Source: a virus. From it: 33,012 nucleotides of DNA. Positions within the stretch are counted from its first letter, which is position 1. Each line of letters opens with the position of its first letter. This document shows, one piece after another, positions 3,730-20,790 of this stretch. The position numbers and the translations under genes were made by a program. The stretch lies in IMG/VR virus record IMGVR_UViG_3300045988_126595, positions 1-33,012 of that record; one strand, given 5' to 3'. The notes under the pieces were generated by a model. It was not told the origin of the DNA and made no database searches. It was given only the letters and a program-made list of their open reading frames with translations.

Positions 3730-4951
3730 TCATCAAGAAAAAGCATTTGAAAAGTTTTCCAAATTAAAAGTAGGTGCTTTGTTTATGCAAATGGGAACAG
3801 GTAAAACTAGAGTAGCAATTGAATTAATAGATTATAATAAATGTGATTTATTAATTTATGTAGCACCATTTAGCACATTAAAAAACATTGAAAATGAATT
3901 TATTAAATGGGAATTAAAAACATCATATAAATTAATTGGTTATGAGACTATTAGTTCTAGTGATGTTAAATATTTAGATTTATTGAAAAAATTAGAAAAT
4001 AAAAAATGTTTTATAGTAGCAGATGAAAGTATCTTTATTAAAAATGAAGAGACAAAAAGATTTAAAAGATTAATTCAATTAAGAAACAAATGTGAATATG
4101 CTCTTATACTTAATGGAACACCTATAACAAAAAATGAGTGGGATATATATAATCAAATGTTCTTCTTAAGTCCATTAATAATAAACATGAATAGAGAACA
4201 ATTTCTTAATACCTTTTTTAAAAAAATCACATACAAAAAAGCAAAAAGCAATGAAAAAGTATTTTATAAATTTAGTGAAGTAAATGCCAATTTGTTACAA
4301 GGGATGATAGAACCTTATATATTTAAATGTGAATTAGATTTTAATAAAAAAGAAGAAGAAAATTATATTTATATCAATTATGAAGATAATGGATATTATG
4401 AAGAAAAAGAAAAGAAATTAAATGAATATATAGAAAAAAGAACATCAGATGTTATAATAAATATGCTTACTAATTTAAATGTAATTGCGTCTAATTATAA
4501 AAAGAAAAATGATAAATTAATTGAATATATAAAAAACAAAAGGTTAATAGTATTTTGCAACTACTTAGATGAGATTAAATATATAAGTGATAGAGTTGAG
4601 TGTTATTTAATAACTGGAGAAACACCAAGAAGAGATATAATAATTGATAATTTCAAAAACAATAATATTCCTTTATTAATGACTTACGGAGTAGGAAGTT
4701 ATTCATTAAATTTACAATTTTGCAATGAAATAGTATATTCAAGTATTAATTTTGATTATGCCAAATTGGAACAAAGTAAATATAGAATTAAAAGAATAGG
4801 GCAAAAACAAGATATTAAATATACCTACTTCTTAACTGATTTAGGCATTAATAAATTAATATTAGAAAATATAAAAAGAAAAATGACTTTAGAAAATTTA
4901 GTTAAAGAAAAATTAGAGGAGAGTGATATTGAGTGGCTAAAAGATATATAG
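3722..4951 (+). CDS. SNF2-family (SF2) helicase/ATPase
   Basis: Motif I MQMGTGKT, motif II VADESIFIKN, motif III LNGTPITKN, motif VI QSKYRIKRIGQKQD. Confidence 0.85.
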   Translation: MNNHQEKAFEKFSKLKVGALFMQMGTGKTRVAIELIDYNKCDLLIYVAPFSTLKNIENEFIKWELKTSYKLIGYETISSSDVKYLDLLKKLENKKCFIVADESIFIKNEETKRFKRLIQLRNKCEYALILNGTPITKNEWDIYNQMFFLSPLIINMNREQFLNTFFKKITYKKAKSNEKVFYKFSEVNANLLQGMIEPYIFKCELDFNKKEEENYIYINYEDNGYYEEKEKKLNEYIEKRTSDVIINMLTNLNVIASNYKKKNDKLIEYIKNKRLIVFCNYLDEIKYISDRVECYLITGETPRRDIIIDNFKNNNIPLLMTYGVGSYSLNLQFCNEIVYSSINFDYAKLEQSKYRIKRIGQKQDIKYTYFLTDLGINKLILENIKRKMTLENLVKEKLEESDIEWLKDI

Positions 4952-6228
4952 AAAAAAATGTATACGAAAGTGCTAAAGAAAGAATTAGTTTTATATTTAA
5001 TGAATTTGATAATATTTGTGTATCATTTAGTGGTGGTAAAGATAGTGGAGTAGTACTTAATTTAGCAATAGAAGAGGCAAGAAAAAGAAAAAGAAAGATA
5101 GGAGTAGTATTTATAGATTTAGAGGCTTGGTATAAAAAAACTGAAGAATTTATTAATAGAATGATATTTAATAATTTAGATGTATTAGAACCTTATTGGA
5201 TATGTTTACCTATGAAGAGTGATAATTCTCTTTCTTATTTTGAACCTTTTTGGATATGGTGGGAAAGGGGAAAAGAAGATATATGGGTAAGACCTATGCC
5301 TCAAAACGAATATGTTATTAATTTAAATAATAATAAATTAGATTTTTACAAAGAAAACATGACATTTGAAGATTTTGTTAAAGAGTTTGGCAATTGGTAT
5401 GGCAAAGGAGAAAAGACTGCTTGTTTATTAGGAATTAGAGCAAATGAAAGTTTAAATAGATATAGAGCAATAGTGATGGATAAAACAAAATATAAAAATA
5501 AGAATTATTCAACATTAGTTAAAAATGAAACTTATAATTTTTATCCTATATATGATTGGACTGTCGATGATATTTGGACTTATAATGGAAAGTTTGAAAA
5601 AGACTATAATCATTTATATGATTTATTCTATAAAGCAGGAATAAGTATTTATAAAATGAGGGTAGATGAGCCATTTGGAGATACTTGCAAGGCTGGTTTG
5701 AATATGTTTAAGGTAATAGAGCCAGAGACTTGGTTTAGAGTGGCAAATAGAGTATCAGGGGCTAATATGGGGTCATTGTATAATCATAATAAAATTATGA
5801 ATTCCAATTATACATTACCAAAAGGACATACTTGGAAGACATTTACTGAATTTTTACTAGATACTCTGCCAAAAGATACTGCAGATAATTATAGAGTTAA
5901 GTTTTACAAATTTGCTAAGTATTGGGAAGAAGTTGGATGTGGTCTACCAGAAAATGAAATAAAAATATTGGAAGAAAAATATTCAGATAAGATTATAAAT
6001 ACTCATCAATTTAATAATAGAGGTAAAAAAGATAAAGAAGTAATAGTATTTAAAGATATAGTTGATGAAATACCCGAATTAGATACAAAAAGTGAATTAT
6101 TAACATGGAAAAGAATGGCAATGTGTATTATCAAAAATGATTATCTATGTAGAAGATTAAATTTTGGAATAACAAAAGATTTAACAAAAAGACAATCGGA
6201 ACTTTTAGAAAAATATAAAAATTTATAA
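4933..6228 (+). CDS. PAPS-reductase-like PP-loop ATPase with long C-terminal extension (IbrA/DndC-like)
   Basis: PP-loop VSFSGGKDSGVVLNL near the N-terminus; 431 aa. GTG start overlaps the SNF2 gene end by 19 nt. Confidence 0.8.
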   Translation: MAKRYIEKNVYESAKERISFIFNEFDNICVSFSGGKDSGVVLNLAIEEARKRKRKIGVVFIDLEAWYKKTEEFINRMIFNNLDVLEPYWICLPMKSDNSLSYFEPFWIWWERGKEDIWVRPMPQNEYVINLNNNKLDFYKENMTFEDFVKEFGNWYGKGEKTACLLGIRANESLNRYRAIVMDKTKYKNKNYSTLVKNETYNFYPIYDWTVDDIWTYNGKFEKDYNHLYDLFYKAGISIYKMRVDEPFGDTCKAGLNMFKVIEPETWFRVANRVSGANMGSLYNHNKIMNSNYTLPKGHTWKTFTEFLLDTLPKDTADNYRVKFYKFAKYWEEVGCGLPENEIKILEEKYSDKIINTHQFNNRGKKDKEVIVFKDIVDEIPELDTKSELLTWKRMAMCIIKNDYLCRRLNFGITKDLTKRQSELLEKYKNL

Positions 6229-6976: not shown

Positions 6977-7005
6977 TTGACATACCCACTTAAATGGTGT
7001 ATAAT
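6977..7005 (+). promoter_or_regulatory. Consensus sigma-A promoter (replication operon)
   Basis: TTGACA (6977-6982), 17-nt spacer, TATAAT (7000-7005). Confidence 0.7.
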
Positions 7006-8343: not shown

Positions 8344-8372
8344 TTGACAAAAATTAAAATAAGGTGTATAAT
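8344..8372 (+). promoter_or_regulatory. Consensus sigma-A promoter (recombination operon)
   Basis: TTGACA (8344-8349), 17-nt spacer, TATAAT (8367-8372). The downstream RBS block gaaaggagaacaaa is identical to the one at 927-940. Confidence 0.7.
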
Positions 8373-15908: not shown

Positions 15909-16151
15909 ATGGCAAAAAAGAGTAACACTGGAAAGAAAAAGGTTGATGTTATTAGTTTAGATAACAAGCCGGTTAATCCACAAGTTCAAGAGGAAAAAGT
16001 AGAAGTACCAGCAAAGTTTGTTAAGGCTATGCCTAACACTCCGAAAACAGCGGAAAGTAAAATTAAATTACATAATGGAAGAGTATATAAAGACTTAGAC
16101 AATGGCTATGGTATGTATTCTGATAATGGACAAGTATTTAGACTTAAATAG
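15909..16151 (+). CDS. Hypothetical basic protein (80 aa)
   Basis: RBS gaaggagg lies 8 nt upstream of ATG 15909. Confidence 0.65.
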   Translation: MAKKSNTGKKKVDVISLDNKPVNPQVQEEKVEVPAKFVKAMPNTPKTAESKIKLHNGRVYKDLDNGYGMYSDNGQVFRLK

Positions 16152-16160
16152 GAGGTAAAT

Positions 16161-16397
16161 ATGGAGTTTATTAAATTGAGAGAAGATAGATATTTAATCA
16201 AGGACAGTAATGGCTTGATTGTATCTAACGAAGAGAAACTAAAATTAGAAAAGAAAGAATTAATCATTAAAGATATAGAAAGCAATGAGTGTCAAGGAAA
16301 GACTACTCAGAGAATTGAAGAAATAGATAGGGAGTTGGAAAATGGAAACAAGTCTAAATCTAACACTATCAAAAAAGCAAAGTCAACTACTAAATGA
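16161..16397 (+). CDS. Hypothetical protein immediately upstream of TerL (small-terminase position, no recognisable motif)
   Basis: RBS taggaggt; overlaps the TerL start by 56 nt in another frame. Confidence 0.55.
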   Translation: MEFIKLREDRYLIKDSNGLIVSNEEKLKLEKKELIIKDIESNECQGKTTQRIEEIDRELENGNKSKSNTIKKAKSTTK

Positions 16398-17943
16398 TAT
16401 AATTAGCCCTAATCTAACTGAAATATATGTATTAGGAAGTACGCAAAGTGGCAAGACCTTTGATATATGTTTAGGGTGTATCTTATATGCACAAGCCTTA
16501 TATAATTATAATCCAAATGAAACTTACTTTGGCTCTATAACTGGTTGGAGTTTAGAGGCATTAAAAGGTAACATCTTAGAGCCTTTAAAAAAGTTTCTAG
16601 ATGATATGAAGTTAGAAAAAGGAAGAGATTATACATTAAGGTGGCAGACCGATGACAAATATCTTGAAATATACAATATCAGATATTATTTCTTTGGTTT
16701 TAATAATGTACTTGCATTTAATAAGATATTAGGTAAGCCTTTGATATTTGAATGGATAGATGAAAGTGCTAGAATATATTCACAAGATAATTTAAGAGAG
16801 CCATTTAATGAGTTCCCTGGTAGACAAGTATCTTATGCAGACCATCCTTATTTAAAGACTATACATTCATTCAATGTTGAGGGTGGGGAAAATCATCCAT
16901 ACAAGATTGACTATATAGATAAGAAGCCTTATGCTAAGCATTATTCCTTTTTTCCTTATGATAATCCTAAGATAAAAACAGAAGAAGCAATGAGGAAAGT
17001 ATTAGAAATGTTTCCACCTGGAAACCTAAGAGAACAAAAGATATTTAATAAATGGGTACTTGCAACTGGTAGAGTATTCAATACTATAAACACTATAGAT
17101 AATCTTGATAATTATGCTTTTAGAGAAATAGGAATAGGAATAGACTATGGTTCAGTCCATGCGACAGTCTTCGTACCTATTGCTCTTGCTTATGATAAGG
17201 TAAATAAGAAATGGGTGTTAATAAGGTTAGAGTATTACTACCATAATGCTAAAGAAGAACAAGATAACCCTACAACTGAATACTTTAGTAAGCAATTAAG
17301 ATTATTCTTATTGTATCTAAAAAGCGAGTATGGACAAGTGCCTATTACCACAATGGTATTAGATAGTGCCGCCGCTCACTTCCATAATAGGTTAATTGCT
17401 GATAATATACCACATACATTAATCAATAAAAGCATGGATAATGTAGTTGAGGGAGTTCAATATATGCAATCTTTGTTTTATAAGGGATATTTGCTTATAT
17501 ATAAACAAAAAGCAATTAAGCACATAACCGACAATGGCGAATTAATTTATAGTGGTAAAGATGATGGAATGCTTGAATTAGAAAGTTATAGATATGACTT
17601 AAAGGCAAGTGCTAAAAGTGGTAAAGAAGCCTATGTAAAAGAGTTTGATGACCACATAGATGCTTGCTTAACAGGAGATACTATTATTGCAACAGATAGA
17701 GGTAATTTCAAAATAATTGATTTAGTTGGAAAAAGTGGAAATGTTAAATGCTTTGATGGTAATAAATTTATATATAAAAATTTTAAAGATGTAAGGCTTA
17801 CAAAAAGAAAACAAGACATATATAAATTAAAATTATCAAATGGTTATGAATTAAAAGGTACATATGACCATCTTATATTAACTACAAAGGGCTATAAGAA
17901 ATTAGGAGAATTAACTGAGAAAGATAAAATCATTTGCAATTGA
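16342..17943 (+). CDS. terL: Terminase large subunit N-extein (16342-17664) fused to an N-terminal split-intein half (17665-17940)
   Basis: Walker A GSTQSGKT, Walker B LIFEWIDES, nuclease motifs GIDYGSVHA, VLDSAAA and DDHIDA. The ORF then reads CLTGDTIIATDRG (intein block A) ... GTYDHLILT (block B) and stops at TGA 17941. Confidence 0.9.
   Translation: METSLNLTLSKKQSQLLNDIISPNLTEIYVLGSTQSGKTFDICLGCILYAQALYNYNPNETYFGSITGWSLEALKGNILEPLKKFLDDMKLEKGRDYTLRWQTDDKYLEIYNIRYYFFGFNNVLAFNKILGKPLIFEWIDESARIYSQDNLREPFNEFPGRQVSYADHPYLKTIHSFNVEGGENHPYKIDYIDKKPYAKHYSFFPYDNPKIKTEEAMRKVLEMFPPGNLREQKIFNKWVLATGRVFNTINTIDNLDNYAFREIGIGIDYGSVHATVFVPIALAYDKVNKKWVLIRLEYYYHNAKEEQDNPTTEYFSKQLRLFLLYLKSEYGQVPITTMVLDSAAAHFHNRLIADNIPHTLINKSMDNVVEGVQYMQSLFYKGYLLIYKQKAIKHITDNGELIYSGKDDGMLELESYRYDLKASAKSGKEAYVKEFDDHIDACLTGDTIIATDRGNFKIIDLVGKSGNVKCFDGNKFIYKNFKDVRLTKRKQDIYKLKLSNGYELKGTYDHLILTTKGYKKLGELTEKDKIICN
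17665..17940 (+). mobile_element. Intein N-terminal half (IntN, 92 aa)
   Basis: Cys1 lies at 17665-17667, directly after the terminase DDHIDA motif. Blocks A and B are present; there is no endonuclease domain or blocks F/G before the stop. Confidence 0.8.
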
Positions 17944-17968
17944 CACGATTAGATATTTATTGTATAAT
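17940..17968 (+). promoter_or_regulatory. Perfect consensus sigma-A promoter driving the intein-embedded HNH gene
   Basis: TTGACA (17940-17945, overlapping the TerL-IntN TGA stop), 17-nt spacer, TATAAT (17963-17968), then RBS aggaga 7 nt before ATG 17987. Confidence 0.7.
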
Positions 17969-17986
17969 TAACTAGGAGATGATTAT

Positions 17987-18613
17987 ATGATAAAATATGA
18001 AAATGATTATGCTTATGTTGATGGTTATAAATTTAAGAAAAATACAAGAGATAATTATTATTTATCTTCTAACAATATTGGCAATAGAAGAAAATATTTG
18101 CACATTTATATATGGGAAAAGCATAATGGGGAAATACCAAAAGGTTATGATATACACCATATAGACCACAACAAAGATAACAATGAAATAAGCAACCTTA
18201 AAATGATATTAAAAAGAGAACATAGCTTATTACATTCAAAAGAATTAACCGAAGAACAAAAAGCAAAAAAAATAAAGAACTTTAATGAAAAGGCAAGACC
18301 AAAAGCAATAGAATGGCATAAATCAAAAAAAGCAGAAAAATTCCATAAAGAACAATATAAAATTTCTCTAGGGAAAATGAAACCGCAAAAAATTACTTGT
18401 GAAAATTGTGGAAAAGATTATTATTCAATTTGTAATGGTAGAAATAAATTTTGTTCTAATAAATGTAAAAGTGCTTATAGAAGAAAAATAGGAGTAGATA
18501 ATATTGAAAAAAAATGTATCAAATGTGGAGAAAAATTTGAAGTTAACAAATATTCAAAAAGAGAGCAATGTTATAATTGCTACCCCTGTAGAAATAAAAA
18601 AACTTCCAAATAA
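17987..18613 (+). CDS. Free-standing HNH homing endonuclease with C-terminal zinc ribbons
   Basis: YLHIYIWEKHNGEIPKGYDIHHIDHNKDNNEISNLKMILKREHSLLH, plus CENCG...CSNKC and CIKCG...CYNC. Confidence 0.85.
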   Translation: MIKYENDYAYVDGYKFKKNTRDNYYLSSNNIGNRRKYLHIYIWEKHNGEIPKGYDIHHIDHNKDNNEISNLKMILKREHSLLHSKELTEEQKAKKIKNFNEKARPKAIEWHKSKKAEKFHKEQYKISLGKMKPQKITCENCGKDYYSICNGRNKFCSNKCKSAYRRKIGVDNIEKKCIKCGEKFEVNKYSKREQCYNCYPCRNKKTSK

Positions 18614-18737
18614 AGAAGATGTTTATAATATGGAGGTGGAAGAAGTGCATAATTTTGTTGCCAATAGAATTGTGGTTCATAATTGTAGGTATATCATAAT
18701 AGAGTTTAAAGAAACTGATAGAGCGCCAGTGGTATAA
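18537..18737 (+). CDS. terL: Intein C-terminal half (IntC) plus 17-aa terminase C-extein (18684-18734); start uncertain (TTG 18537 preferred, ORF open from 18504)
   Basis: ...KEDVYNMEVEEVHNFVANRIVVHN|CRYIIIEFKETDRAPVV shows block F (VYNMEVEEVHNFVAN) and block G (VVHN followed by Cys+1). gtggag lies 6 nt upstream of TTG 18537. Overlaps the HNH gene 3' end in another frame. Confidence 0.75.
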   Translation: MKLTNIQKESNVIIATPVEIKKLPNKEDVYNMEVEEVHNFVANRIVVHNCRYIIIEFKETDRAPVV

Positions 18738-18743
18738 AAGGAG

Positions 18744-18968
18744 TTGATTAAAATCGAAATTCGTTGTAAATCTACAAAAAGATATTTATTTAAAATAGAA
18801 ATTGAAGAATATTATAAAAATCTAAAGAAGATGGGGATAGAAGTAGAAACTCCTTTGGTAATAGAATATCCTTGCCCTAAGTGTAAGATGATAGAAGTAT
18901 ATGAAATCTACCCTACTCATTACATACATATTAGAAGTTATAAAAGAGATGTTGACAATAATAAATAA
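18744..18968 (+). CDS. Small zinc-ribbon protein, Mu Com-like pattern (start uncertain)
   Basis: IEIRCKSTKRYLFKIE...EYPCPKCKMIEVYEI resembles the Com motif eiRCpkCnklLfk...ikCprCk, with the first CxxC degenerate. The RBS aaaggag abuts TTG 18744. Confidence 0.5.
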   Translation: MIKIEIRCKSTKRYLFKIEIEEYYKNLKKMGIEVETPLVIEYPCPKCKMIEVYEIYPTHYIHIRSYKRDVDNNK

Positions 18969-18980
18969 TTATGCTATAAT
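18952..18980 (+). promoter_or_regulatory. Consensus sigma-A promoter with extended -10; twin of 12813
   Basis: TTGACA (18952-18957), 17-nt spacer, TGcTATAAT with TATAAT at 18975-18980. Confidence 0.65.
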
Positions 18981-19025
18981 TTAAGAGATAGAAAAGTGCG
19001 AAAAAGTGTGTCGTAAACATAAGAA

Positions 19026-19060
19026 GCATATAGTTAAAAAGAGATAACTATATGTTTTTT
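19026..19060 (+). terminator. Intrinsic terminator about 70 nt downstream of the 18952 promoter, upstream of the head genes
   Basis: catatagtta (19027-19036) pairs with taactatatg (19045-19054) around an 8-nt loop, followed by tttttt (19055-19060). The stem is A/U-rich. Confidence 0.55.
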
Positions 19061-19090
19061 ATTATTTATACACATAGAAAGGAGTTAAAA

Positions 19091-19429
19091 ATGAGAACTC
19101 TAATAGAAAAAATAAGTGCCATTTTTAATAAATTAATCGGCAAAATTGCAGAATTTATGCAAAAATTAAGATTAAATTACGAAAATAATAGAAAATGGAC
19201 TTTATATTTATATTTAAATGGTCAATGTATAGATAAAAGAAAAATAGATAAAGACTTTGCTCCTATGGGAAAATTCTATATAGTAAAAGTAAGAGGCATG
19301 AAACATTTACTAGGAACTAATAGAAAAGTACAAATAGTAGTTCAAAGTTATAAATATAAATTGACTGATGAAAAGAAAAGAGAGGCTCATATTGAAACTC
19401 TAATATATGAGGGAGTTGATATTAAATGA
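19091..19429 (+). CDS. Hypothetical protein
   Basis: RBS aaaggag lies 7 nt upstream of ATG 19091 (ORF-track start 19052 lies in the terminator). Confidence 0.7.
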   Translation: MRTLIEKISAIFNKLIGKIAEFMQKLRLNYENNRKWTLYLYLNGQCIDKRKIDKDFAPMGKFYIVKVRGMKHLLGTNRKVQIVVQSYKYKLTDEKKREAHIETLIYEGVDIK

Positions 19430-20790
19430 ATAATCAAGTAAGATTAAAATCAGCATACAACTATTTAGAGGCTCCATATATAAGAGTAGAGGCAACAGTA
19501 ACTCAGCCTGGTATAACTAATGGGAAACCTAATATTTATAAGAAAAATGACTATATAATTGCCCCTAGTGGTAAAAAGGTTGCTACATATATAGTTAATC
19601 AAATATTCGGTTCAGATTTAGTAACGCAGACAGATGGATTATCAATAAACTGGTTAATGCCTACACTTAAAGAGAGCCTAGAATTAGCGGTATATGAAGA
19701 AGAAAGTTTCATATTAATAAATAAGTTTGATAATAAAATATATCTAGAGTGTATTAAGAAATCAGATATACATGATTTAGTACAAAAATATGACAAAGTA
19801 ATAAGTGGTACTATCATACAAGAATTTGTTACTAAAGAAGATATATATGAACTTCATAGAAATATCAAGTTAGAGAATGGTATTACTTATATGACTATGG
19901 AAGTATTCAAAGAAGATAAAGGTGGAAAATTAATACCTGTTGATTTAGGTACATTCAATCTAAGAACTGGCAATGAATATATTGCTAAGTATATATTACC
20001 TTATGAAAACCTAATCAATATAGATATAGGTCAAAATTTCTTTAAAGATAGTAAAAAGTTCTTAAATGAAGAAATGGAAATATTCAATACCTTTGTTGAT
20101 GAAATAGAAAAGACCAAAACTAAGATAGTAACAAGTCAACACTATCAAAGTGGAGACATAGTAACTAATTGGCAACCTGCTTCTAATCATTATAAAGTTG
20201 ATACATTAAGTGTTGGTAAATTAGCAGATTACTTTACTTTATTACCTGGAGATAAAGACCATCAATTATTCGAGTTTTTACAAGGTAATATTAGATTTAA
20301 TGAATATATTAGTTCATTTAAATTCTGTGATTATCAAGTAATACAAATGGCTGGACTAAGTCCTGCAACATTTGGTTATGAAAAAGATGCTTATCAGAAT
20401 GTTGATAGTATAGACCTAAGTAAGAATAATTCTGATATGACTATTGAGGCAATAAAGACACAAATAGAGCCTCAAATAAACCATTTACTTGAAAATGTAG
20501 TAAAGGCTCAACAAGCAAACAACATAAAAGTTAATCTAATACCTACCGAGTTAAATTGGGATTATGGAGCAAATGAGAAATTCAATGATATGAAGAAACT
20601 TCAAGTATTAGGAAGAATTCAAAGTGTTGGAAGTGTTCCATATAGTGTAAAGGCTAAAATAATAACACCTATCCTTAATAAGTTAATTGATGATGATTAT
20701 GTAGGCAAAAATGGTAAATTAATAGAAGAATTAATCAATGCTAATAAAGAGGAAGAAGAAGAAATACAAGTTAAGTTTGGAGAAGTATAA
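19426..20790 (+). CDS. Portal protein (by size and position)
   Basis: 454 aa, between the terminase and the MuF-like gene; ATGA/TAATG coupling. Confidence 0.7.
   Translation: MNNQVRLKSAYNYLEAPYIRVEATVTQPGITNGKPNIYKKNDYIIAPSGKKVATYIVNQIFGSDLVTQTDGLSINWLMPTLKESLELAVYEEESFILINKFDNKIYLECIKKSDIHDLVQKYDKVISGTIIQEFVTKEDIYELHRNIKLENGITYMTMEVFKEDKGGKLIPVDLGTFNLRTGNEYIAKYILPYENLINIDIGQNFFKDSKKFLNEEMEIFNTFVDEIEKTKTKIVTSQHYQSGDIVTNWQPASNHYKVDTLSVGKLADYFTLLPGDKDHQLFEFLQGNIRFNEYISSFKFCDYQVIQMAGLSPATFGYEKDAYQNVDSIDLSKNNSDMTIEAIKTQIEPQINHLLENVVKAQQANNIKVNLIPTELNWDYGANEKFNDMKKLQVLGRIQSVGSVPYSVKAKIITPILNKLIDDDYVGKNGKLIEELINANKEEEEEIQVKFGEV

Follow-up and report, generated by a model that had tools for sequence, protein, structure and literature searches.

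A Phage Large-Terminase Gene with a Predicted Split Intein and a Free-Standing HNH_3 Endonuclease Gene

The DNA analysed here, 33,012 nucleotides of the IMG/VR virus record IMGVR_UViG_3300045988_126595 (below referred to as the window, i.e., the whole stretch at its full length), carries a gene for the large subunit of a phage terminase (TerL), which is interrupted by a 1019-bp selfish element at 17665..18683. The element lies within the codons for the TerL motif D-H-x-x-D-A|x-R-Y, where the bar marks the insertion site. Judged from its sequence, the gene is very probably fractured, i.e., TerL would be made as two separate polypeptides that carry the two halves of a split intein, encoded on either side of a free-standing HNH_3 endonuclease gene, and that are joined by trans-splicing. 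Three components by which a fractured gene is recognized are found: two TerL open reading frames (ORFs) on the same strand, the N- and C-terminal intein halves (IntN and IntC, respectively) and, between these, a separately translated HNH ORF. The principle is already known and the split layout is widespread in phage terminase genes; the variant features here are the HNH_3 endonuclease, the insertion site, the overlap between the HNH and IntC coding sequences and an Asn residue at position 4 of intein block F.

The interrupted terminase gene

The upstream TerL ORF (16342..17943, 533 amino acids) reads ...KEFDDHIDA|CLTGDTIIATDRG...GTYDHLILT...KIICN and is terminated by a TGA codon at 17941-17943. 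Its first 441 residues, the N-extein (16342..17664, + strand), comprise the ATPase domain and most of the RNase H-like nuclease domain, and end in ...KEFDDHIDA. From here the ORF continues into IntN (17665..17943, + strand), which is in frame with the N-extein, starts with Cys1 at 17665, contains block A (CLTGDT) and block B (TYDH), and extends over 92 residues. An original prediction, made from the letters of the window, had described this switch at DDHIDA into blocks A and B as well as the stop after 92 intein residues, and each of these features is found at the positions it gave. The third ORF, which extends from 18498 to 18737, encodes ...DVYNMEVEEVHNFVANRIVVHN|CRYIIIEFKETDRAPVV. It contains IntC (18504..18683, + strand), with blocks F and G ending in ...DVYNMEVEEVHNFVANRIVVHN, which is 60 residues long if counted from the TTG codon at 18504, or 49 residues from that at 18537. 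The C-extein follows at 18684..18737 (+ strand), i.e., Cys+1 and 16 residues (CRYIIIEFKETDRAPVV) and a stop codon. Blocks F and G followed by Cys+1 in another frame had also been predicted and are read directly from the DNA; the C-extein, however, is 17 residues long including Cys+1, rather than Cys+1 and 17 residues. The three ORFs, starting at 16342, 17987 and 18504, occupy three different frames (1, 2 and 0 modulo 3, respectively).

Identification of the interrupted gene as terL is based on PHROGs, tblastn, profile and fold searches because Pfam alone is silent: a Pfam search with the spliced protein gave no terminase family at E ≤ 10. A single-sequence phmmer search of TerL against the Protein Data Bank (PDB) yielded spurious matches to dehydrogenases only. 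The N-extein matches phrog_2, terminase large subunit, with E 6e-17, and PHROG terminase families match the in-silico spliced, 458-residue TerL across the junction. In tblastn searches the spliced TerL is ~25% identical, over 96% of the query, to annotated TerLs of Firmicutes and Actinobacteria phages. A profile built from 35 TerL homologues matches the D6E TerL structure (5oe8) with E 1e-15, and in this alignment the D6E stretch kkeldhsidatryliael pairs with VKQNDHQLDADRYFVNTI. Furthermore, a Foldseek search with the AlphaFold2 (AF2) model of P0001, an intein-free allele (pLDDT 88), returned the TerLs of D6E, Sf6 and HK97 and the nuclease domain of that from SPP1. The protein displays both defining features of a large terminase, i.e., an N-terminal ASCE ATPase with a Walker A motif (GSTQSGKT in the window) and a C-terminal RNase H-like nuclease with conserved acidic residues.

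When joined, the exteins (441 + 17 residues) yield a protein of 458 residues, which is colinear with uninterrupted homologues of exactly this length. The best match of the spliced TerL in a collection of 5.8 billion proteins is P0001 (458 residues, ...KEFDDHIDALRYIIIEFKETDRAPVV), to which it is 96% identical at 100% coverage; the C-extein pairs with LRYIIIEFKETDRAPVV of P0001. The claim that joining the exteins restores the TerL nuclease motif is borne out by this alignment, which had been proposed as a check, since P0001 reads DDHIDA-LRY at the corresponding position. Residues D436, D440, R443 and Y444 are invariant across the 35 TerL homologues, and the last helix of the P0001 model comprises residues 437-451. 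The intein is therefore inserted one turn into this helix, directly after D440-A441. As judged from the model, the C-extein corresponds to the rest of the last helix of the nuclease domain (most of the helix) and the C-terminal arm, the D6E counterparts being helix alpha6 and the arm. The D6E arm has an influence on the binding of ATP and probably on docking to the portal (PMC5727402).

The two intein halves were compared with the Pfam family Intein_splicing (PF14890), for which the cut-off is 35.8 bits. Each half alone scores below this value (IntN 29.3 bits at profile positions 3-93; IntC 32.1 bits at positions 109-155), while the fusion of IntN and IntC scores 55.2 bits over positions 4-155, i.e., the halves are complementary and together clear the cut-off; a search of this kind had been proposed as a check. 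The fused intein aligns end to end with the Spl DnaX intein (7cfv, E 1.3e-10, query residues 2-141); other solved inteins that align with it are Npu DnaB (4o1r, E 5e-9), Ssp DnaB (1mi8) and NrdJ-1 (8ubs). The class 1 residues are in place, i.e., C1, TYDH in block B, and VVHN|C with the penultimate His, the terminal Asn and Cys+1. Among relatives of the element, C1 and the block B T..H pair are kept in at least 90% of 38 unique IntN sequences, and the pattern DVYN.EV..HN...G...HN|C is kept in at least 90% of 32 unique IntC sequences. IntC had been described as similar in size to that of DnaE; this applies to the core that aligns with the solved inteins (~38 residues) but not to the entire IntC, which at 49-60 residues exceeds the 36-residue DnaE IntC.

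The free-standing gene between the halves (17987..18613, + strand) encodes a predicted HNH_3 homing endonuclease of 208 residues, with an N-terminal HNH nuclease and C-terminal Cys4 zinc-ribbon-like motifs. Its match to PF13392 (HNH_3) scores 59.7 bits, well above the cut-off of 24.8, with E 2e-16, and that to phrog_15471 has E 2.5e-38. There are 451 homologues, and those listed are all ~170-230 residues, i.e., of free-standing size. Residues H57, H58, D60, N66, N70, H79 and H83 and the CxxC pairs are invariant in 21 diverse homologues. The top PDB match of the AF2 model (pLDDT 89.6) is I-HmuI (1u3e), the sole one with E < 1. The 3' end of the gene overlaps the 5' end of the IntC coding sequence by 110 nt, IntC being read in the +1 frame relative to HNH.

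A predicted sigma-70-type consensus promoter for the HNH gene and the downstream IntC, TTGACA-17-TATAAT, is located at 17940..17968 (+ strand). It matches the consensus at 12 of 12 positions, and the IntN stop codon, TGA 17941-17943, lies inside its -35 hexamer, in agreement with the original prediction. Perfect TTGACA-N17-TATAAT sites are found at 2738-2766, 6977-7005, 8344-8372, 17940-17968 and 18952-18980 of the 33-kb window, all on the + strand, and GGTGTATAAT is common to three of the five. Because dinucleotide shuffles give an expectation of 0.01 such sites, these sequences are almost certainly real promoters of the phage; they probably mark transcription units of the host RNA polymerase, one of which would belong to the HNH cassette. 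TATAAT-like boxes recur in the spacer between IntN and HNH in diverged relatives. The ribosome-binding site (RBS) AGGAGA (17974-17979) is located 7 nt upstream of the ATG at 17987, and the complete HNH ORF that had been predicted behind these signals is present.

The 5' region of the HNH gene may also form a hairpin (17953..17998, + strand), with the -10 box in the 5' arm, AGGAGA in the apical loop and the ATG at 17987 in the 3' arm. RNAfold gave -13.6 kcal/mol (z -2.2) for the 86 nt at 17925-18010, which contain the hairpin, with 4 of 200 shuffled sequences being as stable; similar hairpins are found at the HNH start in some relatives, not in all, and are suggestive only. The structure might possibly be regulatory, as the hairpins of Dassa et al. 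2009 and the control of mobE would suggest by analogy. Transcripts from the cassette promoter would lack the 5' arm, and read-through transcripts from terL would contain it.

Translation of IntC could start at TTG 18504, preceded by the Shine-Dalgarno (SD) sequence AGGAG at 18490-18494, giving 60 residues, or alternatively at TTG 18537 (GGAG at 18527-18530), giving 49 residues. A start ~59-63 codons before the +1 position, with AGGAG ahead of it, recurs throughout the family, and in one relative (L004) it is an ATG one codon upstream of the window's TTG 18504. The IntC ORF is never called by the gene callers of the source databases, and many metagenomic TerL annotations are therefore shortened.

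Empty sites and the family of HNH loci

The contig that encodes P0001, referred to as L001, offers a direct comparison with an empty allele. In blastn alignments, window positions 16001-17665 correspond to L001 3660-5324 (95% identity) and positions 18687-19500 to L001 5327-6138 (97%). The junction sequence is GATGCT|TTAAGGTAT in the empty allele and GATGCT|TGC...CATAAT|TGTAGGTAT in the occupied allele; the empty-site DNA of L001 is ...GATGACCATATAGATGCT|TTAAGGTATATCATA..., and the empty-site sequence in intein-free relatives is ...GATGACCAYATAGATGCT|TTAAGGTATATC.... The length of the insertion, 1019 nt, is not divisible by three, and codon +1 is that for Leu (TTA) in the empty allele and for Cys (TGT) in the occupied allele. 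In the empty-site loci there is no HNH gene within the 9.4 kb that surround terL, where the DNA is ~95% identical to that of the window and TerL is 96% identical. The element is found, identical at the nucleotide level, in an independent assembly (Logan SRR6474302), which argues that it is not an assembly or frameshift artefact; the 533-residue protein is found on five contigs.

Comparison with other occupied loci shows that the cassette and its surroundings have different histories. With respect to L011, the N-extein DNA is 93% identical (dS 0.31), while IntN, HNH and IntC are 99-100% identical (dS ~0). For L013, the corresponding values are 87% (dS 0.65) for the N-extein and 59% for the C-extein, against 93-97% for the element, and for L004 the TerL proteins are 65% identical and the cassettes 75-82%. 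The cassette is also found in TerLs that are only 64% identical to that of the window. Because the cassette is more alike than the flanking terL sequences, it moves between terL alleles as a unit, as homing predicts. The ratios dN/dS with respect to L004 are 0.14 for IntN, 0.17 for HNH and 0.27 for IntC, which indicates that all three are under purifying selection.

These data fit a scheme in which two polypeptides would be made, TerL(1-441)-IntN (533 residues) and IntC-CRYIIIEFKETDRAPVV (66-77 residues), the latter started inside the HNH gene. The intein halves would assemble to give a HINT fold of class 1 and splice in trans, yielding a TerL of 458 residues that would differ from the intein-free allele at Leu442Cys only and contain the junction peptide EFDDHIDACRYIIIEFK. 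The HNH enzyme, expressed from its own consensus promoter, would cut or nick the intein-free terL of co-infecting relatives near the insertion site, and in the course of its repair the cut allele would receive a copy of the entire IntN-HNH-IntC cassette along with the Cys+1 codon (homing). An occupied allele would be immune, its target site being disrupted.

A search of IMG/VR with an alignment of HNH homologues gave 80 loci, which were scanned with our own hidden Markov models (HMMs) of IntN, IntC and HNH; the family counts below refer to 86 loci that carry this HNH family. The split layout of the window is found in 62 of the 86. In these split loci the distance from the end of IntN to the start of HNH is mostly up to ~60 nt (1-56 nt), in a few ~550-570 nt, and the frame of IntN varies; IntC overlaps the 3' end of HNH in the HNH +1 frame in 30 of 31 split loci. 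The longer distance is illustrated by L046 (2912-3489; also L043 and L072), in which the ~570 extra nucleotides contain two small ORFs (62 and 73 residues) after a long perfect hairpin with a TATAAT box; in L072 there is one ORF of 89 residues.

A nested form is found in ~11 of the 86 loci, where one long TerL ORF extends through IntN...IntC and HNH is read in another frame (L058 1942-4233, L089 2136-4211, L052, L056, L060, L068, L070, L075, L076, L084 and L087; proteins P0255 and P0285, which are TerLs with a ~290-residue intein). The in-frame linker of these loci, ~200 residues, is junk-like. These relatives were considered as contiguous, in-frame HNH inteins, an assignment that was rejected because the HNH frame differs from that of the long TerL-intein ORF. 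Flanking intein halves were not detected by our HMM scan in 13 of the 86 loci, and in at least seven of these HNH is free-standing directly 3' of an intact, uninterrupted terL (L017 2036-4115, L018 14-1229, L019 2107-4076, L023, L037, L057 and L062). Some of the TerLs next to a free-standing HNH have changed motifs, DHSIDGLRY and DHYCDGSRY. The free-standing arrangement fits a homing endonuclease with its target in the adjacent 3' end of terL, acting before, or without, joining an intein. In a neighbor-joining tree of the HNH proteins the free-standing and split forms interleave, L017 and L018 being placed inside the clade of the window's HNH.

The commonest insertion site in the family is ...DH|C(M/I)DAxRY. 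The site in the window, DHxxDA|CRY, is located four codons downstream and is rare, being shared only by P0241 and P0242 among the best 150 cluster representatives. Within the TerL family of the window, L007 (2125-3206), L008 and L016 have a second IntN-HNH-IntC cassette, with a 49% identical IntN and a related HNH, at KEFDH|C IDATRY. In the family as a whole, the position of the insertion shifts along the motif (DH|, DHA|, DHG|, HHVD|, DA|). An exhaustive HMMER search with IntN gave 700 relatives, and in 69 of the best 150 (50%-identity clusters) IntN ends at the C-terminus of the protein, i.e., is split-like, mostly after a TerL ...DH-type motif. There is also a contiguous TerL mini-intein, P0279 (DHA|C...HN|CDAVRY). 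Among the IntN relatives are, in addition, P0245 (688 residues), a TerL with three separate Intein_splicing stretches, and P0263 (705 residues), a ribonucleotide reductase fragment with an internal intein and a C-terminal, split-like IntN.

Other terL alleles are interrupted in different ways. A terL allele 98% identical to that of the window (P0051; L091 1887-3317) has an in-frame, LAGLIDADG endonuclease-like tail (GYVDGDGC) after ...HFHNRLI. An Rfam intron search of this locus gave no match, and the contig ends at the ORF; the tail probably stems from a different mobile element, inserted elsewhere in terL. P0066 (299 residues, ending in RLELS) may be another interrupted terL allele.

Downstream of terL, between this gene and that for the portal protein, an ORF of 74 residues (18744-18968, + strand) has two CxxC pairs (zinc-ribbon-like) and no PHROG match; it occupies the same position in relatives, e.g., L017 4105-4308 and L019 4066-4284. 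A 431-residue ORF at 4933-6228 (+ strand), which adjoins a helicase gene, matches the PHROG "phosphoadenosine phosphosulfate reductase" with E 2e-105. This combination is characteristic of phage modules for DNA modification or replication. Transcription proceeds from one strand throughout the genome, and the window contains no tRNAs. A megablast search of the GenBank phages gave no match for the terL region, and the lineage is known from metagenomes only. The G+C content of the phage is 27%, which gives only a hint of the host.

Alternative explanations

A number of observations weigh against a fractured gene joined by trans-splicing. Position 4 of block F is usually Asp in class 1 inteins, and the aligned Spl DnaX and Npu DnaB inteins also have Asp here. 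In the window the residue is Asn (DVYNMEV, 18630-18650), i.e., this class 1 feature is missing; yet at least 90% of the family's IntC sequences have the same Asn, which suggests that it is probably tolerated. The charges of the halves, +8 for IntN and -2 for the IntC core, are unlike those of the DnaE split inteins, in which IntN is acidic and IntC basic. I-HmuI is a weak structural match for the HNH model (E 7.6e-3, probability 0.93, TM 0.26-0.31), and the IntC start codon would be TTG.

A different view of the same cassette is that it acts as an obligatory post-translational regulator of packaging (an addiction module) and/or that the family represents a living evolutionary series of the merging of a homing endonuclease (HEN) and an intein, which we consider unlikely. 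As a regulator, the selfish cassette could time the maturation of nuclease-competent terminase, since IntC and the C-extein would be part of the HNH transcription unit, which has one of the five consensus promoters in the genome, and the hairpin would mask the HNH start codon in read-through terL transcripts only. The evolutionary series would comprise free-standing HNH after terL, the mini-intein, the nested, out-of-frame HNH and the fractured gene.

The intein halves could instead merely hold the TerL pieces together non-covalently, without ligation, as in the NrdA protein of phage Aeh1, where functional reassembly follows insertion of an HNH gene (mobE) in nrdA according to work cited in PMC2677866 and PMC3045599. 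Both the Asn at block F position 4 and the atypical charge complementarity of the halves would be in line with such a role. However, Cys1, the block B Thr and His, the penultimate His, the terminal Asn and Cys+1 are intact family-wide, and the +1 residue changes from Leu to Cys exactly where the chemistry needs it, a change that argues for splicing and would be needless for mere association. An unexcised intein of ~17 kDa would, moreover, be situated one helical turn past the invariant D440. Association without splicing is on these grounds quite improbable.

Decay of a contiguous HNH-intein is very improbable. In this case TerL would be a pseudogene, or the 533-residue product would be active unspliced, without the last 17 residues. 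Such a scenario could draw on the relatives that have a contiguous TerL-intein ORF with a nested HNH (L058, L089 and P0255) and on the mini-intein P0279; because contiguous relatives exist, the split form is plausibly derived from, or the source of, contiguous forms. In addition, the 441-residue N-extein keeps D436, H438 and D440 of the nuclease motif. Yet a decaying element is difficult to reconcile with dN/dS values of 0.14-0.27 on IntN and IntC, with catalytic residues that are at least 90% kept in more than 30 unique split copies, or with a split layout that is found in ~60 loci of many TerL lineages and in which the internal SD sequence and start for IntC are conserved. The element is identical in independent samples, in apparently complete genomes of ~30-33 kb. 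R443 and Y444 of the C-extein are invariant in uninterrupted homologues, and a D6E TerL shortened at its C-terminus by only 10 residues had a ~20-fold higher Km for ATP (PMC5727402).

We find it extremely improbable that the HNH ORF resides in a group I or II intron, such that RNA splicing removes ~17941-18536 and leaves a contiguous TerL-intein that splices in cis. Excision of a segment of length 2 modulo 3 could join the IntN and IntC frames, HNH_3 enzymes such as I-HmuI (the top structural match, 1u3e) are typically intron-encoded, and the TerL gene of Campylobacter phage IBB_35 has been read as containing an intein plus an intron (PMC3322345). Nevertheless, Rfam group I and II intron models gave no match at E ≤ 10 in 17400-19000 and none at the gathering score in the whole window. 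With 43 non-coding nucleotides between the IntN stop and the HNH ATG, and with HNH and IntC overlapping, there is no room for a ribozyme core outside coding sequence; this spacer has a perfect promoter and RBS rather than conserved paired elements. In the relatives its length and the frame of IntN vary freely, while the IntC start with its SD sequence is conserved.

There is equally little to recommend the idea that the HNH protein is a terminase-associated packaging factor, as in HK97-like cos phages, with a functional rather than selfish reason for its position in terL: HNH genes beside the terminase are known packaging components (Kala et al. 2014, as cited in PMC10448857) and at least 7 of the 13 loci without detected intein halves have HNH directly after an intact terL, but phages that are ~95% identical in the region, with TerL 96% identical, have no HNH gene within 9.4 kb, i.e., it is dispensable, genomes resemble each other much more closely in the cassette than in the adjoining terL, as is characteristic of a mobile element, and the protein belongs to the PF13392 HNH_3 (I-HmuI-like) family with predicted zinc-ribbon DNA-binding modules.

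If TerL is assembled by trans-splicing from a fractured gene, an essential packaging enzyme would need post-translational stitching, in a natural example for which both empty and occupied alleles are known. The HNH lineage occurs in three contexts, which makes it suitable material for testing models of gene breaking and collaborative homing. The family also constitutes a pool of new canonical split inteins with Cys1 and Cys+1, Asn at block F position 4 and a very short native C-extein, from which candidates for protein engineering might be drawn.

Relation to known systems

The layout had been likened to the fractured genes of Dassa et al. 2009 (PMC2677866; gp41-1, NrdJ-1, IMPDH-1), and this comparison holds: the host gene is split into two ORFs on the same strand, the N-terminal part ending in IntN (88-105 residues in that study, 92 here) and the C-terminal part opening with IntC, with a free-standing endonuclease gene with its own regulatory signals (predicted here) between the halves. 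The point of division is likewise the canonical one for HEN insertion, between blocks B and F, and the genes are of phage origin with intein-free alleles in existence. The hairpin that those genes have around the endonuclease start codon may have a counterpart here. In contrast, the endonucleases described there are GIY-YIG or Vsr-like, while that of the window is HNH_3, and the host here is a PBSX-type, siphovirus-like TerL. Further differences are the 110-nt overlap of the HNH 3' end with IntC in different frames, the sigma-70 consensus promoter in place of the T4-type late TATAAATA element, and the C-extein of just 17 residues.

The suggestion that such an arrangement was new for a packaging enzyme with an HNH-type endonuclease was overstated, because Dassa et al. 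already list a gp17-like phage terminase, split at an unusual point, among the fractured genes, and an HNH gene in a split PolB intein has been reported. According to PMC11766414, GOS-TerL (from the locus of Dassa et al.) and AceL-TerL (from another metagenome) are atypically split and both trans-splice in vitro. Like the intein of the window, these are naturally split inteins in metagenomic phage large-terminase genes (Thiel 2014; Bachmann & Mootz 2015, as described in PMC11766414). Their IntN is 25-37 and their IntC 104-122 residues, whereas the window has a canonical split with 92 + 49-60 residues. The terminase host in PMC2677866 is gp17-like (Myoviridae), and the insertion site is presumed to differ from the DHxxDA|xRY nuclease motif used here. 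In the literature searched we found neither a report of a TerL nuclease motif interrupted by a canonical-site split intein with an HNH_3 gene nor one on the frequency of this arrangement.

The putative split intein in the PolB gene of the Pseudomonas jumbo phage MIJ3 (PMC6892783) resembles that of the window in that an HNH ORF is located between host ORFs with blocks A/B and F/G, likewise recognized by sequence alone. There, however, the host is DNA polymerase B and the splicing residues are Ser1 and Ser+1, and no family-wide or empty-site analysis is reported. In Campylobacter phage IBB_35, TerL is interrupted by an intein and an HNH-containing "intron" (PMC3322345). The Aeh1 mobE/nrdA system (Friedrich et al. 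2007; Gibb & Edgell 2007, as described in PMC2677866) is similar in that an HNH gene with its own control splits an essential phage gene; its RBS-sequestering hairpin may have a counterpart in the window. It differs in having, as described there, no intein, the NrdA pieces reassembling non-covalently, while in the window split-intein halves flank the HNH gene.

A preprint by Gosselin, Arsenault and Gogarten (10.1101/2025.01.02.630785) on inteins with HENs encoded out of frame or antisense proposes that free-standing HENs invade inteins and that this often results in a split intein; TerL is the commonest host there. The relatives L058, L089 and P0255 are of the same kind, as they keep one TerL-intein ORF with the endonuclease in another frame. 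The HENs in the preprint are EndoVII-like (out of frame) or LAGLIDADG or Vsr-like (antisense) and are found in actinophages, while here they are HNH_3 enzymes of low-G+C phages. Furthermore, the copy in the window is truly split, with many stop codons and with IntN and IntC in different frames.

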